NCBI GenBank assembly: GCA_046758445.1
Contig: JBHIAE010000044.1
Location: 1-23,172, forward strand
Source: Candidatus Thorarchaeota archaeon
Lineage (GTDB): Archaea > Asgardarchaeota > Thorarchaeia > Thorarchaeales > Thorarchaeaceae
Length of the DNA stretch: 23,172 nucleotides
Direction: 5' to 3'
The notes below the pieces were generated by a model. The model was not told the DNA's origin and did not search any database. It worked only from the letters and a program-made list of their open reading frames with translations. This document shows positions 1-8,243 of this stretch, piece by piece (position 1 is the stretch's first letter; each line of letters begins with the position of its first letter). The position numbers and the translations under genes are program-made.

Positions 1-606
1 GAAGCTGTTAGGCTGCCAACGCCGGCACATGTAGTCAAGCCGCTTGTGCATTCCAAGGTATTGATTCTTGGAGAGGATGGTGTGGGCAAGAACAGCCTTA
101 TGCGAAAGGCTGAGATGGAGCCCATTGCACCCTCGGAGGAAGTCATTGATTCTGTGCCCTATATCCATAGCAAGGTATTCGAAACTGAGGATCACAGAGT
201 CAGACTCAATGTCTGGTCATTTGACGAAGCAGTCAAGTCCAAGATCAGCCGCAATGAGTTCTATGATGATGCTGAGGCACTCATCATCGTCTACGCCGCC
301 TCGGACAGATGGAGTTTCGACTCAATAGACTTCTGGTTGAAAGAAGCTTCCATCACACTGGAAACTGTTCCGCCTATAGTGATTGTTGCAAACAAGACGG
401 ACCTCGTTATGGATGTCGACGAAGACACAGGAGATAGGCCGGTCACAAAGGAGGAGGGATTCTCTCTTGCGGAGAAGTTGGCTGAGAGATTCGGAAAGGG
501 GAAGAAACTCCACCAGGTGGCCTTCCTAGGTACATCGTGCCTGACTGGTGAAGGCGTTGTAGATGTCTTCCGAACGGCATCTGAACTCGCCGCGCGGAAC
601 AAGTAG
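1..606 (+). CDS. C-terminal part of a protein ending in a degenerate Ras/Rab-like small GTPase domain (5' end outside the window)
   Basis: The frame is open from base 1 (EAVRLPTPAHVVKPLVHSKVLILG...). It shows a P-loop GEDGVGKNS, Rab-like segments RVRLNVW and FYDDAEALIIVY...SFDSIDFWLKE, G4 NKTD and G5-like TSC..GEGV. G2 and G3 are not conserved. Confidence 0.85.
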   Translation, partial: EAVRLPTPAHVVKPLVHSKVLILGEDGVGKNSLMRKAEMEPIAPSEEVIDSVPYIHSKVFETEDHRVRLNVWSFDEAVKSKISRNEFYDDAEALIIVYAASDRWSFDSIDFWLKEASITLETVPPIVIVANKTDLVMDVDEDTGDRPVTKEEGFSLAEKLAERFGKGKKLHQVAFLGTSCLTGEGVVDVFRTASELAARNK

Positions 607-647: not shown

Positions 648-968
648 GTGAGTGTGGTGTTGGAAACGGAGGAACTGTGTGAGAGCTGCGGAAATGAAGC
701 GGATCCTGCTCAGCCCGTAAAGACTTTGGAGGATCAATTCGCAAACGATGCACGCAAGGACGAGGGAATCTGTATCAACTGCTTCACTAGGAGGTTTGTA
801 ATCGTTTCGAGAGAACGTGAGGATACGGGCGGATTGATTTATGAGCTTCAACAGAAACCCGCATCTAAAGCAGATATAGGTAGCTCCAAGTTCGGATGCA
901 AGAAGTGTGATTGGGTTGCATGGAGCGAAAGGGGGCTTGAGGCCCATCTGGCGAAGCGTCACCCGTGA
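648..968 (+). CDS. Small zinc-finger protein (N-terminal CxxC...CxxC plus C-terminal C2H2 finger)
   Basis: CESC and CINC pairs. The C-terminal CKKC-x12-H-x4-H matches classical C2H2 spacing. The exact start (GTG/TTG 648-660) is uncertain. Confidence 0.8.
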   Translation: MSVVLETEELCESCGNEADPAQPVKTLEDQFANDARKDEGICINCFTRRFVIVSREREDTGGLIYELQQKPASKADIGSSKFGCKKCDWVAWSERGLEAHLAKRHP

Positions 969-982
969 AGACCAATACACGG

Positions 983-1627
983 TTATTTCCCGGTTAACTG
1001 AAAGTATTCGCGTTCCCTTTCTATGAGATGTCCTGACATCCTTAGTCCACCCAAGTTCCTGGCAGCGCTTTCGAGCATTCCCATGCGATACGTTGCCGTT
1101 CGTGGACCTACACCATGCAACCACTGGAGGGTAGTTAGATTAAGCGCTTCATGGACAGAGAAATACAATCGCAAGTCAGATGCTATTGTCCTGGTTCTGT
1201 CAAACATGGAAACTGTCAGTCCTAGACTTGGCGCAACAAAGCTTGCAATTACCCAGATGACAACTAGAGGATCGTTGGCGAATTCGTTGAAGAACAACAT
1301 GAAGCCAGTAAGAATCGGCTGCACCAAGGCCAGTACAACTAGAGCAAGCGACATGTACTGAGGAGCATCATCACTTCCCAGTCCGGCCACTCCGATGATA
1401 TCTTGGTTTGGTGGAAAGAGAAAGACTAGAACACCACCAGAAGCAACACCCACGACCAGCGCAGAAAGGAGTAGCTCGAAGACGAACTCGACTGTTCTCT
1501 CAGTCCAAACCAGGGGGAAGCTGATTAGTGATTGTATAGTGAGTGCTGCAACGATTGTAGCGGCGCCTGCAAAGAACCCTCTCCAACTGAAGAACTCGTA
1601 CCTCATGACCATGATATCTTCAGACAA
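983..1627 (-). CDS. Hypothetical membrane protein (about 4 TM helices, soluble C-terminal tail)
   Basis: 214-aa ORF with four long hydrophobic stretches, convergent with the zinc-finger gene. Start is TTG 1627 or ATG 1612. Confidence 0.75.
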   Translation of the reverse strand: MSEDIMVMRYEFFSWRGFFAGAATIVAALTIQSLISFPLVWTERTVEFVFELLLSALVVGVASGGVLVFLFPPNQDIIGVAGLGSDDAPQYMSLALVVLALVQPILTGFMLFFNEFANDPLVVIWVIASFVAPSLGLTVSMFDRTRTIASDLRLYFSVHEALNLTTLQWLHGVGPRTATYRMGMLESAARNLGGLRMSGHLIEREREYFQLTGK

Positions 1628-2604: not shown

Positions 2605-5430
2605 TTGTTGGCAGCTGTTCCTGTAGGATACGAAGCATTTCACAGTCTTCGCAGGAGGAGTGTGACTCTACTTTGTTTTCTACTCACAGCCACAATGATA
2701 ATGGGAATAGCAGTGTACGTTGATTCGTATTCGGTTCACTACTGGGACGAGGCGGTAGACGTCGGAGAGGTTTCGATGATAGTTGAGGGGCCGGGGGTCG
2801 ATGATGTCCTTGATTCAATCCGTCAGATTGATGGAATAACCAAGGCAGTTGCGCTCAAGACGGAGGATGCCGAAGTCTCCTTCCTATTTCAAGGCGAAGT
2901 ACAGTACCAGTATGTCAGTACTTGCGCGCCAACCACAGAGTACTATGACGCGTTTCCGAGCATCTTCACCATAGCAAATGGGCGGCTTCCGCAGAATGAG
3001 TCTGAAATCGCACTCTCCCAGAGCTTTGTGAGTTGGGAATGGGTGAATCTTACCATTGGCTCAGAACTGCGCTACGTAGTTTCTGACACAATGGTAGAAC
3101 GAAACATGACTGTTGTAGGCACATACGATATACAGGGAGTCGATCGGGATGATTCGTGGAATTACTACTATTTCGATTTCCGTGCAATTGTCGTTCCTTC
3201 CGTCATCGACGAGTATTCAGAGACGCCGGTAGTCCATGCCGACGTTGACAGAACGAGAATCACACCTTTCAACGCAGCGGGTTCACTTGCATACCTCACA
3301 GGAATCGCGCAATCAATAAGAAACCTTGATCCCCAGTATACTCCTCAGACACCATGGTCAAGATTCTATCCGAATAGCCTGCTGGAAAGAGGGATCCATT
3401 CCTACATTGGATGGCAATCGGAAAAGAGGATGTCGCAGCTCTGGCGTGCACTCCCTGCAATCCTACTCATTCTCATGGTTGGTTTCCTTGCAATTAGACA
3501 CAATGTAAATGAGAGACGATATGAAGCAAACATGCTGGTGGCCCGAGGAGCATCCGAAGGCCATGTGAACAGCATCATCAATCGTGAGATAGGTCTTGTT
3601 GCAGTCATTTCATGTGGCTTGGGCCTGCTACTCGGACTTGGTGTAAGTAGGATTGCTCTTGGCGCGACAGGTTTCTTTGAATTCGATTTCTTGCTTATGA
3701 TCGAAGAACCTTGGCTAATCACTATTGAATCAATCATTCTCTCATTGGTGACAGGAATCCTACTACCGGTTCTGACCCTCGTTGGCTATAGGACAGTCTA
3801 TTCAACAAAGAAGACAGTAGAAGCTAGTTCGGGCAGATTGAACAAGATATCTCGTGGTCTGTCGCTTGTCAAATGGGATGCCCTTATTGTAGTCCTTGCC
3901 AGCATTCTGATGATGGCAATGTACACTGGTGGTTCTGAGGTTCAGTCAAACCCGATCTTGGGATTCCTCGCTTCCATAACTCCTCTACCGCTCTTCATCG
4001 GAGTTGCGAGTCTTGCTGTAAAGGGAATTCGCCGTGGGGCCAATCTCATATCAAAATCCCTTGTCCGGATTGTAGGTGAAGTCCCTGCATTTGTTGGGGT
4101 CCGCCGAATAGGCAAGGAAGCATCATCCGCCGGGCCGGCAATCATGGTTCTGGTTCTGGCGATAAGCCTTGCATGGAACAGTGCTGTAGTAGATAGCACT
4201 CTCCCTGCGACCAATCTGAATCAGGCCAGATTTGCAATGGGGGCCGATGTCGCATTCAAGCTAGACACAACACAAAGCAGCCTTTGGGACGAGTTTCTTG
4301 TCAATGCCACAGACCACGCGCTCACGTCTACCGTTTCACGAATTGATGTGACGACTCTCTTCCTCGCAGATGAGTACGACAGCAGAGCTTTCTTTGCGGC
4401 GATAGATCCAACAGAATACTCTGAGATTGGATACGACCACCTTGGGGTCCGTCTAAATGAATCAGAGCTGAGTGAGCAGCTTGAGAATCTCGAAAATGAT
4501 CCATCTGGCGTGGTCATCTCAAGGGACATTGCAGAACGCTATGAATTTGAAGAGGGAGATGTCCTACGCGCTTTTGAGGAATGGGATTCGCCTCAGGTAT
4601 ACGAGTTCACAATAATAGGAATCGTTTCAGCAATTCCCGAAGTCCTAGAGCGAGCTTCAGAAAATGGAGGAGGAGGGCCAGTCTTCTACTACGATGACAT
4701 TCTACCTCCGGGTCCGATGCCACCGCCTTATTACTCGCAGCACAAGTTCGGCGAGAGAAGGGCCTGGGTCCACCAAGACCTGGCAAGGGTTCTCTTCAAT
4801 GAAACTGAGTATGTGGAGCATTATTGTGTATTGGGCACTGCTGCTGGTGCAAACGGTACACTTGTCGCGGAGGAACTCTTGAACTCTGGCGGCGATGATG
4901 TCATAGTGAGTGGAGAGTGGGGCGCTGTCGACTTTGAGGTTCATCATTATGTAAGTCAAATCACGTATGAGATTGATAGAGCAGTTGATACAATGACCAC
5001 GACCGTCACCGTGGGTGTGATACTAGGTGCCTTCACTATCTACGCTGTTGAAGGAGTGCGTGCCAGAAGGAGAGAGATTGCCCTTCTAAGGTCCATGGGG
5101 GCCAGTAACTCACTCGTCGTGAGAGCTCAGGGAGCAGAGCTTCTTGTGCTGGTGTTTCTGAGTATTCTTCTACTCGGACTTTACGCTCCACTCTTCGTAG
5201 CGAACTCTCTTCTGACAGCGGTCGGGGCCTATGGCACTTGGTCGTATCTCTTTCCTGTTGTAGTCTTTCCTGTCATTCCATGGTTTCTGTTACTCGCCGT
5301 GCTGACCTTCTTTCTTGCTTCAGCTGTGGTGTTCATCTTGGCGATTTCAACACTAGCCACCAGAGTAGGTCTCACAACCTCTCTGAATGCAGCCTGGGCA
5401 GAAGCTGGCCCCTATGGAGGTGACCTATAG
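2605..5430 (+). CDS. FtsX/MacB-like ABC permease A (tandem duplicated, two large extracytoplasmic domains)
   Basis: N-terminal TM, large soluble domain with GRLPQNESEIAL, and two FtsX signatures (ERRYEANMLVARGAS; ARRREIALLRSMGAS). TTG start after GAGGGGGAG. Confidence 0.92.
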   Translation: MLAAVPVGYEAFHSLRRRSVTLLCFLLTATMIMGIAVYVDSYSVHYWDEAVDVGEVSMIVEGPGVDDVLDSIRQIDGITKAVALKTEDAEVSFLFQGEVQYQYVSTCAPTTEYYDAFPSIFTIANGRLPQNESEIALSQSFVSWEWVNLTIGSELRYVVSDTMVERNMTVVGTYDIQGVDRDDSWNYYYFDFRAIVVPSVIDEYSETPVVHADVDRTRITPFNAAGSLAYLTGIAQSIRNLDPQYTPQTPWSRFYPNSLLERGIHSYIGWQSEKRMSQLWRALPAILLILMVGFLAIRHNVNERRYEANMLVARGASEGHVNSIINREIGLVAVISCGLGLLLGLGVSRIALGATGFFEFDFLLMIEEPWLITIESIILSLVTGILLPVLTLVGYRTVYSTKKTVEASSGRLNKISRGLSLVKWDALIVVLASILMMAMYTGGSEVQSNPILGFLASITPLPLFIGVASLAVKGIRRGANLISKSLVRIVGEVPAFVGVRRIGKEASSAGPAIMVLVLAISLAWNSAVVDSTLPATNLNQARFAMGADVAFKLDTTQSSLWDEFLVNATDHALTSTVSRIDVTTLFLADEYDSRAFFAAIDPTEYSEIGYDHLGVRLNESELSEQLENLENDPSGVVISRDIAERYEFEEGDVLRAFEEWDSPQVYEFTIIGIVSAIPEVLERASENGGGGPVFYYDDILPPGPMPPPYYSQHKFGERRAWVHQDLARVLFNETEYVEHYCVLGTAAGANGTLVAEELLNSGGDDVIVSGEWGAVDFEVHHYVSQITYEIDRAVDTMTTTVTVGVILGAFTIYAVEGVRARRREIALLRSMGASNSLVVRAQGAELLVLVFLSILLLGLYAPLFVANSLLTAVGAYGTWSYLFPVVVFPVIPWFLLLAVLTFFLASAVVFILAISTLATRVGLTTSLNAAWAEAGPYGGDL

Positions 5431-8243
5431 TGTTCTTGGTGTCTAGGCTCACTTCCAAAGCACCTCAGGTCGCGGCCACCATTCTGATATTCTCGCTGTC
5501 AGCAGGTGTTCTTGGCGGCATCCTCTTCTATATGGATAGCGCAGGTCCCGACGTCCTTGGTGAGCTTACTGAAGATATTCCCGTGGACATGTATGTCAGC
5601 TTTAGGCAGAGTTTCTACAATCAAAATCAGACATCGATAAGCGACATCGAGGATGTTCTAAAGGAGGAATCTGCAGTCATCCACACAGAAACCTTGGCGA
5701 TACTTGAGGACTATAACTGGGAAGAAGAAGATTGGAGGGACGTATTCTGGTATCTCCTAGGAGTCAACGAGTCCTTCTTCGAAACTTTCTCACATGCAAT
5801 TGAAGTTGTGGACGGAGAGTTGAATCTCAACTCCACTACGTGCCTAATCGAGGAAGGAAGAATGACAAGGTACGGTCTTCGAGTAGGTGACAACGTGACC
5901 GTTTCCGTTGAAGTATACAATGAAACTGGAGACCAGTACCTTGTAGAGCAGAACTACACAGTTGTGGGGTCTTTCACAACTACACTCTTCATGTACGCAT
6001 ACGAATGGGGGGTGCCACTTTCGACCTCCCTCTTCCTAGTCACAACAGTTGAAGGGCTGGAGGAGGGATTTGGTGAGATTAGTCGTGACTCTTGGAATTC
6101 CATTAGGGATGAGATTTGGGCGGCTGTAGATCACTCATTGGTACTTGCGCCGGAAGCCATTGGAGCTATGGAAGACCTCGAACACCGGATTGAACAGAAG
6201 ACTCTACCCTTGGCATCAGTAAGCCACTTCGCCTTGATAGATGCAGTCCATGAGTACGTGGCCTGGGGAATCAGTATGAGAGCAATTGCCCTATCATTCT
6301 CCATACCCACCATTGTTATGGCAATCATTCTGGTTCAATACAACTCAGACCTGTTGGCTGATGAGAGACGGCGAGATGTAGGAACGCTCAAGACACGCGG
6401 TTCGTCAGGATGGCAGGCGTTTCGATGGATTCTCAGCAATGCCTTGATTGTAGGATTGATTGGAGGACTGGGTGCAGTACTCGTTGGCGGAGTTTCAGCG
6501 TTGCTCTCTGGAACTGTAAGAGAGCTATTGTCCTTTGACCTGACCAGGCTCGCAGAGTTCACCCTGCTACTTCAAATCGAGGCGGTTGTGGCTGTCTTCA
6601 TGTTCTCATTCGTAGTCGGACTAGGAGTAGCACTGCCTTCGGCCATTAGGGCTCTATTGATGTCGCCGACCGAAGCCCATAGCATAATTGAGAGAGATAT
6701 CCTTCTAGAAACTGAGAAGATGGGGAGCCCGGCCTACGAACTTGTCGCCTTGGGGATTACGGGATATCTTCTCTCGCCGTTGTTGCTTGCCTTCAGGTAC
6801 ATACCAATGAGCACCCTTGGGTCAATGATGTTCGCTGCAATTGTCATTCCGATGCTTGGAATATTCGTGGTGGCCTTCACACGTCTGCTGTCGCGGCCAG
6901 CCGCAAGTGTAAAATCAAGTGTTCTTGCGAGAATCAAAGGAAAATCACTACACTCAGGTACAAAGGTCATCTCGAACTATCTCAGACTGTTCAAGAAGAG
7001 TGAATCGCTGGGAGTCATGTTCATAGCAATGGTATTCGCGGCTGGTATCTTCTCTTCACTGTCTGCAAACACAGCCAGCGTTCACATGAGAGAGGTACTA
7101 TACTTCGAAACTGGTGCGGACATCAAGATCGATATCAAGCCATCGCTTGACAATGTGACCAACGCGCTCCTTGAGGACATATCACTTGTAGAGGGAGTAG
7201 AGTCCGTGAGTGGAGTGCTTGAGACTGATGGGCATGTAGGCTACTGGACTTCTGACTATGGAACGCGTAGATATGTCAGGACACCAATAACAGTGTTCGG
7301 AGTGCAGCCGGTTCAATGGCTTGAGTCTGCATTCTGGTTACCCTACTTCACAAAGGATGGCACCCCTTGGACATCCCTCCCACTACTAGAGGCGGACAAT
7401 ACCAGTGTTCTAACGTCGTTCAAGCCTGTTGATCACTACACTGGAGGATGGCAATACACCCCAGTATACGGCAACGCTTTGACTTTGGAGCTTGAAGCAC
7501 CGGCATGGACAAACTCTAGTGACTGCACAATCGTAGACGTCTTGGCTGATAGCTACGAGGGCGGATACGGTGGAAGAACATACCTCCCCGGAGAGTCTGG
7601 CGCCACGTTCTTTGTTGCAGCTAACCTTGCCTATGTTCAGGCATGCTTGAATACAACCAGGATAAACAAGGTCTATGTGAACCTTGAGCCAGGAGCTAAC
7701 TACACAAAAGCACTGGTTGATCTCAATGAGGTTGCGCCAAACAGCTTTGACAAAATCGCATCATCTGAAGCGCTTGTGGACGCAGCATTAGAGTCGAGGG
7801 CAGGACAGTCAATCTATGGAGCATATACGCTGAACGTGATCTTTTCCTTCCTCTATCTGACTGCTGGCATTCTAATTGTATCCATGGTTAGATTTCGGAA
7901 GCTGAGGCGACAATTCTCAATCATGAGAGCACTTGGGTCAGAACCAAGGCCAATAATCACTTCGGTGCTGTTGGAGTCAGTGACAGGAATTGCAATGGCC
8001 GCTACCATAGGAACGCTAGTTGGTCTTCTACTGACCAGCCTAGTCATCCAACTTCCACTAATCTATATGGGCAGTATGACTGCGCTTTTGTGGAACAGAC
8101 TTCCGGTGATGCTGGCGGTTTCTGTGCCTATGTTGACAGGAATCCTGGGCGCAGCGGTTCTATTCACATTAGCAGCCACATATTTCGTGGTTGTCAGGAA
8201 TCTGAGAGCCAATATCGCTCAAGAAATACAGTACATGGAATGA
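5430..8243 (+). CDS. FtsX/MacB-like ABC permease B (tandem duplicated)
   Basis: FtsX signatures ERRRDVGTLKTRGSS and LRRQFSIMRALGSE, plus the GAD motif (FETGADI). Its GTG start overlaps the stop of permease A (TAGTG). Confidence 0.92.
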   Translation: MFLVSRLTSKAPQVAATILIFSLSAGVLGGILFYMDSAGPDVLGELTEDIPVDMYVSFRQSFYNQNQTSISDIEDVLKEESAVIHTETLAILEDYNWEEEDWRDVFWYLLGVNESFFETFSHAIEVVDGELNLNSTTCLIEEGRMTRYGLRVGDNVTVSVEVYNETGDQYLVEQNYTVVGSFTTTLFMYAYEWGVPLSTSLFLVTTVEGLEEGFGEISRDSWNSIRDEIWAAVDHSLVLAPEAIGAMEDLEHRIEQKTLPLASVSHFALIDAVHEYVAWGISMRAIALSFSIPTIVMAIILVQYNSDLLADERRRDVGTLKTRGSSGWQAFRWILSNALIVGLIGGLGAVLVGGVSALLSGTVRELLSFDLTRLAEFTLLLQIEAVVAVFMFSFVVGLGVALPSAIRALLMSPTEAHSIIERDILLETEKMGSPAYELVALGITGYLLSPLLLAFRYIPMSTLGSMMFAAIVIPMLGIFVVAFTRLLSRPAASVKSSVLARIKGKSLHSGTKVISNYLRLFKKSESLGVMFIAMVFAAGIFSSLSANTASVHMREVLYFETGADIKIDIKPSLDNVTNALLEDISLVEGVESVSGVLETDGHVGYWTSDYGTRRYVRTPITVFGVQPVQWLESAFWLPYFTKDGTPWTSLPLLEADNTSVLTSFKPVDHYTGGWQYTPVYGNALTLELEAPAWTNSSDCTIVDVLADSYEGGYGGRTYLPGESGATFFVAANLAYVQACLNTTRINKVYVNLEPGANYTKALVDLNEVAPNSFDKIASSEALVDAALESRAGQSIYGAYTLNVIFSFLYLTAGILIVSMVRFRKLRRQFSIMRALGSEPRPIITSVLLESVTGIAMAATIGTLVGLLLTSLVIQLPLIYMGSMTALLWNRLPVMLAVSVPMLTGILGAAVLFTLAATYFVVVRNLRANIAQEIQYME

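Follow-up and report, generated by a model that had tools for sequence, protein, structure and literature searches.

The window, the whole 23,172-nt stretch of DNA analysed here (C44:1-23172 of a 113-contig assembly), begins at a contig end that cuts through an open reading frame. Frame +1 runs without a stop from base 1 until the TAG codon at 604-606, and its 201 residues contain a small-GTPase (G) domain. The gene, the motifs within it and the genes downstream are laid out as follows.

1..606, forward strand: 3' part of a gene of about 438 codons for an N-domain/linker/pseudoGTPase protein; 201 codons and the TAG
19..42, forward strand: TPxHxxKP motif (residues 7-14), directly ahead of G-domain strand 1
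70..96, forward strand: P-loop G24-E-D-G-V-G-K30, then N31, then S32 (GEDGVGK-N covers nt 70-93)
211..231, forward strand: VWSFDEA (V71-A77), in place of the G3/switch II motif WDxxGQ
304..318, forward strand: DRWSF, invariant, after strand 4; canonical paralogs have DRxSF and the Trp is family-specific
391..402, forward strand: G4 motif NKTD (N131-K-T-D134), for guanine specificity, retained
508..525, forward strand: family-specific insert before strand 6, LHQVAF in the window and LHPVAF in most orthologs
532..540, forward strand: G5-like TSC (T178-C180), TSAK in canonical paralogs
648..968, forward strand: zinc-finger protein of 106 residues, CxxC...CxxC and a C-terminal C2H2-type finger
983-1627, reverse strand: predicted membrane protein of about 214 residues, assigned to no family, kept in L003, L005, L031, L047 and L053
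1923-2594, forward strand: MacB-type ABC ATPase, by family assignment
2605-5430 and 5430-8243, forward strand: two FtsX-type permease genes of about 940 codons each, the first of which was scanned against Pfam

The beginning of the gene lies elsewhere in the same assembly. A reading of the window made from its letters alone (the sequence-only reading) had proposed that the G domain is fused to an unseen domain; the window begins at the contig end, and the N-terminal part was located on contig C88 instead, by searching the genome with the upstream portion of its 92%-identical ortholog L003. This part (L056:1516-2217, the 3' end of C88) has a GTG start and 234 codons, is still open at the contig end and is 87% identical to L003, and comparison with a second ortholog, L002, indicates that the assembly lacks about three codons, some 7-9 nt, where C88 stops and the window starts. 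The N-terminal part on C88 and the G domain on C44 thus form one protein of about 438 residues (about 440 in the family), with a gene divided by an assembly gap. The proposed fusion is correct, and it is seen unbroken in the orthologs, whose frames extend 190-320 residues further upstream than the G domain; 51 loci give proteins of 407-531 residues once trimmed to the conserved N-terminus. A stand-alone GTPase of 186 residues, starting at a GTG at base 46, was considered and rejected, as the ortholog frames are open and conserved for 200-300 residues upstream. The predicted protein P0001 (223 aa) was likewise tried as a full-length ortholog with a short N-terminal extension; it appears to be a short gene call, with a start that falls on a Val-Glu inside the L003 frame and is presumably an internal GTG. 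Several gene calls, this one among them, are shortened to the G domain (P0002, for instance, has 168 aa), and the public names of P0002, P0006, P0010 and P0016 include 'GTPase SAR1 family protein' and 'Ras-related protein Rab-23'. Names of Rab or SAR1-family GTPases are unsuitable for these pseudoGTPase genes, and both the names and the gene models mislead.

By sequence and by fold, the G domain of the window frame belongs to the Ras superfamily and is Rab-like. Against Pfam the frame scores 61.4 bits with Ras (cut-off 21.6; 1e-16), 50.1 with Roc and 33.0 with Arf, and a profile search of the PDB gave Rab1a, Ypt51, Ypt6 and Thor-Rab (7EZB) as best matches, with E values of 1e-17 to 1e-19. The full-length protein of L003 (421 aa) was modelled with AF2 from a 49-sequence alignment (A3), and its G domain (L003 residues 235-421) is predicted with pLDDT above 90. 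Foldseek places 7EZE, Sec4, 7EZB, 7EZD and REM2 in the top ranks for this domain, with Rab11 also among the top matches; E values are around 1e-12 and TM scores by target 0.74-0.83. A ROCO (Roc-COR) identity was rejected: Roc scores below Ras, the protein stops 10-20 residues past the G domain, and no further Pfam domain was found in the full-length orthologs, hence no COR domain. A prenylatable C-terminal Cys is absent, as the window protein ends in ELAARNK and the ends of the orthologs are also without Cys.

The motifs named in the sequence-only reading, GEDGVGK-N, WSFDEA, NKTD and TSC, with no switch-I Thr, are all present in the window as described. A pattern-and-tblastn scan with one genome per species yielded 54 loci at 48-92% identity, nearly all from MAGs titled Thorarchaeota or Promethearchaeota; the host is an Asgard archaeon, as suggested earlier. 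In the alignment of 53 orthologs, 33 columns are invariant (residue tallies here were counted by hand from the alignments): K19, L23, G24, E25, V28, G29, K30, W72, F74, D75, A77, R84, Y88, Y98, D102, R103, W104, S105, F106, S108, F111, W112, E115, P125, N131, K132, D134, E152, A157, A161, A174, S179 and F190. The Gly and Lys residues of the P-loop and the guanine-binding residues of G4 are thus fixed, as is S179 of the G5-like TSC, with T178 and C180 conserved in at least 90% of sequences. In the insert before strand 6, A174 is invariant and L170, H171, P172, V173 and F175 are each conserved in at least 90%; residues 166-170 or so, ahead of it, have no aligned counterpart in the canonical paralogs. 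The residues before the G domain had been read as a Pro-rich linker. Residues 7-14 are indeed rich in Pro, but they constitute a conserved motif, TPxHxxKP, in which P8, H10 and P14 are each conserved in at least 90% of the 53 orthologs.

The elements that bind Mg2+ and the gamma-phosphate are missing from the same alignment. Residue 31, which follows GK, is Arg in 14 orthologs, Glu in 14, Gly in seven, Lys in five, His in five, Gln in three, Ser in three and Asn in two, and never Thr; GKS is kept in just these three of 53, so the Mg-binding Ser/Thr of G1 is lost. S32 matches the latter Ser of 'GKSS' in Rabs and is not a displaced ligand. Between helix 1 and strand 2 there is no conserved Thr column in the 53 orthologs, and the same-genome paralogs have TIGVDF where the switch-I Thr is expected. 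The G3 motif DxxG(Q) is replaced throughout by WSFDxA(V), with loss of the Gly and Gln equivalents, and DxxG occurs in none of the orthologs or family paralogs found. Joint loss of the Mg2+ and gamma-phosphate elements with retention of G4 and G5, as proposed for the window, is therefore seen across the 53 orthologs. The pattern recurs in these orthologs and is not a product of chance or decay. Absence of the P-loop Ser/Thr that binds Mg, of the switch-I Thr and of DxxGQ is thus a character of the family; the Asn is not.

The sequence-only reading had gone further and taken the Asn as a selected, natural counterpart of Ras S17N, a GDP-locked trap for GEFs. Ras S17N favours GDP and sequesters GEFs, and Asn does stand at the S17-equivalent position in the window genome and in L002. 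It stands there in only these two of the 53 orthologs; L003, 92% identical to the window protein, has Lys, and the position otherwise holds Arg, Glu, Gly, Lys, His, Gln or Ser. Thus, of the two features whose conservation in orthologs was to be compared, loss of G3 is conserved and GKN is not. S17N Ras also retains the switch regions that GEFs engage, which here are replaced, and the idea of a GEF trap finds no specific support, given how variable residue 31 is. This variability indicates that there is no selection for Asn, and we regard a selected S17N-like trap as essentially excluded; the Asn would instead be a neutral occupant of a relaxed site.

The register of the G3 segment can be drawn in two ways. 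MAFFT alignment with the same-genome paralogs and one HMMER alignment give an ungapped register in which S73 corresponds to Ras D57, E76 to G60 and A77 to Q61, while two other HMMER alignments introduce a two-residue insert that places D75 at D57, V78 at G60 and K79 at Q61. The AF2 model has strand 3 ending at W-S, followed by a helical turn made of FDEAVK. Compared with strand 3 of Ras and Rab, this fits the ungapped reading, with S73 at the D57 site, slightly better. The G60 and Q61 equivalents are lost under either register.

Comparison of the window with L003 over 603 nt (alignment A5) shows 79 differences, of which about 62 are synonymous and 17 non-synonymous, the latter in 16 codons by hand count. 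Taking about 24% of sites as synonymous, this corresponds to a hand-estimated dN/dS of roughly 0.06-0.09 for this 92%-identical pair. The replacements are concentrated in four places: residue 31, the former switch-I loop (42-44), an acidic insert (137-146) and the C-terminal tail. Together with intact frames at 51 loci and the 33 invariant columns among 53 species, these figures point to strong purifying selection on the pseudoGTPase gene and not to decay. The earlier suggestion that the state is selected, and not a strain-specific loss, thus stands: dN/dS is below 0.1 by hand estimate, the 53 orthologs share the state, and a search for close orthologs with canonical GKS/T and DxxG found none. 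With non-conservative substitutions in the catalytic motifs, an intact fold and maintenance by selection, the family is a conserved archaeal pseudoGTPase.

The window genome contains 13 other small-GTPase matches. The five nearest are 28-33% identical to the window G domain (the best at 31-33%) and are canonical, with GKT, TIGVDF, WDLAGQP and NKIDL, and with ETSAK in the four that reach that far. These canonical same-genome paralogs, and Rab and Thor-Rab proteins as best solved relatives, indicate that the pseudoGTPase family is a derived paralog of the ordinary Thor Rab-like GTPases, one that has gained the Trp of DRWSF and the LHPVAF insert before strand 6. No member with canonical motifs was found among the family members recovered. 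Losses go further in some of these: in P0053, P0054 and the sister-family protein P0046 (from L064) the P-loop Lys is gone (GVGV, GVGM) and NKxD is kept, and the P-loops of P0057 and P0059 read GKQ. Among 1.84 billion proteins, a profile of the N-terminal domain retrieved only 43 representatives, most of them 400-500 aa long and of the same architecture. In a phylum-wide survey of 301 genomes, the window's own included, the profile matched 68 of the 76 genomes of the same family, the single genome that represents a sister family of the order, and 0 of 223 in the other 28 families, with two to four copies in many genomes. By these searches the multi-domain pseudoGTPase protein is restricted to Thorarchaeales.

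Taken together, the alignments show a Rab-derived domain from which every residue needed for Mg2+ binding, gamma-phosphate sensing or hydrolysis is missing, and in which the P-loop Gly and Lys and the guanine motifs are kept. Such a domain could still be an active GTPase that uses non-canonical chemistry, with Glu, Lys or Arg at residue 31, or D75, as a replacement, or with catalysis in trans or by dimerisation. The intact P-loop Lys and base-recognition motifs would permit this, the invariant D75, R84 and D102-R103-W104 could form a new site, and D75 falls at the position of the Walker B Asp in two HMMER alignments. The eight chemically unlike residues at position 31, Gly included, disfavour a conserved replacement ligand, and equivalents of the switch-I Thr, G60 and Q61 are found in no member; we consider this reading improbable.

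Retention of the guanine motifs could also be structural, in a nucleotide-free pseudoGTPase of the class I type whose pocket is empty, whose GxxxxGK and NKxD serve folding only and which acts purely as a protein-binding module. All of the Mg ligands are lost, and acidic residues are frequent both at residue 31 and at the G12-equivalent position. P0053, P0054 and P0046 have no P-loop Lys and still possess NKxD, which demonstrates that NKxD can persist without phosphate binding, and NKxD may likewise be kept for structure alone in an empty window domain. CENP-M and the pseudoGTPase domain of AAGAB offer a precedent of class I (PMC12490416). Against an empty pocket stands the invariance of G24, G29, K30, N131, K132, D134 and S179 across 53 species whose proteins are 48-92% identical; to our knowledge G1, G4 and G5 are degenerate in the class I pseudoGTPases so far described. 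On balance we judge the empty-pocket alternative, the main rival, unlikely.

We favour, with some confidence, a non-cycling domain that most likely holds a Mg2+-free guanine nucleotide as a structural cofactor and provides an adaptor protein with a fixed module for interactions. According to this proposal, the G domain would no longer act as a GTP/GDP switch or as a hydrolase; guanine nucleotide would be bound constitutively without Mg2+, as retention of the motifs suggests; and the domain would present a fixed protein-interaction surface, tethered to the N-terminal domain through a motif-bearing linker, so that the whole protein would work as an adaptor or scaffold. Counting against it, Glu occupies residue 31 in 14 of 53 orthologs and many have Asp or Glu within the P-loop. 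In a site without Mg2+ such acidic residues should repel the phosphates, or the Glu could bind Mg2+ itself.

The remainder of the protein is made up of a compact N-terminal domain and a long linker. For the N-domain (L003 residues 1-75) the AF2 model gives pLDDT above 90 and a fold of four strands plus two helices; a linker helix (136-151) is predicted at about 75, and the other linker residues fall below 50 and are predicted to be disordered. The linker spans some 150-250 residues, is acidic and rich in Pro, and contains several short segments that are conserved: AATFVExP, an [F/Y]xx[I/V]-helix ending in SDxF, a strand-like KxIxVxGxEEI, and TPxHxxKP. Within the helix motif A139, L140, V143, S147, D148 and F150 are invariant in the alignment. 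The N-terminal 234 residues matched no family in Pfam or NCBIfam, and a Foldseek search of the N-domain against the PDB returned nothing below an E value of 0.28. In a wide VIA-align search the top match, a de novo design, reached Z 5.5, with scattered PH, PTB and FERM-F3 domains at Z 3.3-4.2, within the stated noise. In the ESM Atlas, the shape search retrieved only unnamed or unrelated clusters, and the feature search gave no usable match. No known fold can be assigned to the N-domain, from which novelty of the fold does not follow. The family defines a small new N-terminal domain and several conserved linear motifs.

The gene order around the pseudoGTPase is common to the window, L003, L005, L031, L047 and L053, down to 48% identity. 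Upstream and divergent lies an APRT-like phosphoribosyltransferase gene on the reverse strand (L005, L031, L047 and L053; L056:806-1456 on C88 in the window's own genome), and beyond it a geranylgeranyl-reductase-like gene (L056:2-715, forward strand, in the own genome; also L005 and L031). The proximity of a purine-salvage enzyme to a pseudoGTPase that retains guanine motifs may be coincidence. Conservation of this upstream order and of the MacB and FtsX genes was assessed in the window's own genome, L005, L031, L047 and L053. The zinc-finger gene (about 105 codons) follows on the same strand 0-170 nt downstream in L003, L005, L031, L047 and L053, and in L005 its start abuts the pseudoGTPase stop codon; the two genes are possibly co-transcribed. 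The zinc-finger protein matched no Pfam or NCBIfam family above cut-off. In an alignment of seven sequences (A7), with orthologs drawn from the ortholog loci, as a word-index search gave two matches, its Cys and His residues and about 20 other positions are invariant. A predicted complex of full-length L003 (A3) with the downstream zinc-finger protein (A7) scored 0.00, which speaks neither for nor against binding.

The window genome also encodes a paralog without a G domain (L057:1489-2130 on G000:C28), with 213 residues comprising the N-domain and the helix motif. It is followed by a ThiS-family frame (L057:2244-2570; Pfam ThiS 4.9e-8, internal VGGG) and then by a frame with a GMGKT P-loop (L057:2589-3230). 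The ThiS neighbour may have a bearing on the [F/Y]xx[I/V]-helix of the linker, which resembles ubiquitin-like-binding helices in outline only, and its position next to this paralog is what suggests a ubiquitin-like partner. A signalling adaptor specific to Thorarchaeales can be imagined, in which a Mg-independent guanine-binding or -sensing Rab-derived domain works with the co-located C4 and C2H2 zinc-finger protein and the conserved acidic linker helix recruits, for example, a ubiquitin-like partner; we hold this to be doubtful. If true, it would be an archaeal case in which a paralog of Rab became a pseudoenzyme scaffold before the origin of eukaryotes.

The nearest relatives of the G domain in both sequence and structure are Thor-Rab and the Asgard Rab-like GTPases (7EZB/7EZD/7EZE), which share its fold and lineage. 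According to Tran et al. (2024, PMC10933270), Thor-Rab has switch loops of the ordinary kind and binds both GDP/Mg2+ and GTP-gamma-S. Unlike Thor-Rab, the window family has neither the Mg ligands nor DxxGQ, carries the strand-6 insert and places the domain at the C-terminus of a multi-domain protein of about 440 residues; for MKD1, the one genome surveyed there, the architectures named are GTPases of a single domain and fusions to roadblock or longin domains (PMC10933270). In Rnd1/3 and the N-terminal GTPase-like domain of p190RhoGAP the catalytic residues are substituted and the nucleotide pocket is kept in a constitutive interaction module (PMC10211241). The window family resembles these in its GTPase fold, its substituted catalytic residues and, as far as sequence indicates, its retained pocket motifs; the relationship is one of superfamily only, and in the window family the whole Mg site is gone. 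Rnd1/3 and p190RhoGAP pseudoGTPases mostly keep the P-loop Ser/Thr. With CENP-M and AAGAB, of class I, the family has in common the use of a G-domain fold as a scaffold without switching. These two do not bind nucleotide, and AAGAB is without conserved G-motif residues (PMC12490416); in the window family, by contrast, the G1 Gly and Lys, G4 and G5 are invariant. Ras S17N and the Rab T-to-N mutants share with the window genome an Asn at the P-loop Ser/Thr site, but are laboratory point mutants of a switch that is intact in other respects. A non-canonical G3 and long extensions are features of RGK proteins, and the large Rabs (CRACR2A, Rab44 and Rab45) place N-terminal domains before a C-terminal Rab domain. 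Both resemble the window architecture in outline, with no specific homology: the RGK protein REM2 (PDB 3CBQ, Foldseek rank 5) is not set apart from ordinary Rabs in the Foldseek list, and the window N-domain matches no known domain.

Asgard small GTPases are well surveyed, and their expansion is studied as a model of early eukaryotic membrane and signalling machinery. PseudoGTPases are already a known kind of protein (PMC10211241, PMC12490416 and PMC10731463). Among the papers searched, none has 'pseudoGTPase' and 'Asgard' together; what is new here is that an archaeal pseudoGTPase is specific to one order, nearly universal there and joined to a new N-terminal domain. Inside an Asgard order, a Rab-like gene was duplicated and then converted into a multi-domain protein that is conserved and non-catalytic, by a route that also lies behind many eukaryotic pseudoGTPases, and its outcome is a near-universal gene (68 of 76 family genomes) with further paralogs. 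Within the family, loss of the Mg site came first and loss of the P-loop Lys followed, a natural series that could be used to ask what nucleotide binding by a G domain needs.

Some individual members show peculiarities of their own. The most distant, P0046 (L064:4382-6079, reverse strand; genome G112), has 565 residues and a P-loop reading GEDDVGM, and its linker is packed with tandem repeats of the ETKVEAP type; its neighbourhood is not conserved except for a nearby geranylgeranyl-reductase-like gene. Two N-domain matches from the same genus (G227:C41:9811-10182 and G248:C26:35355-35540) contain one in-frame TAG each, which could reflect sequencing error, a broken copy or recoding.
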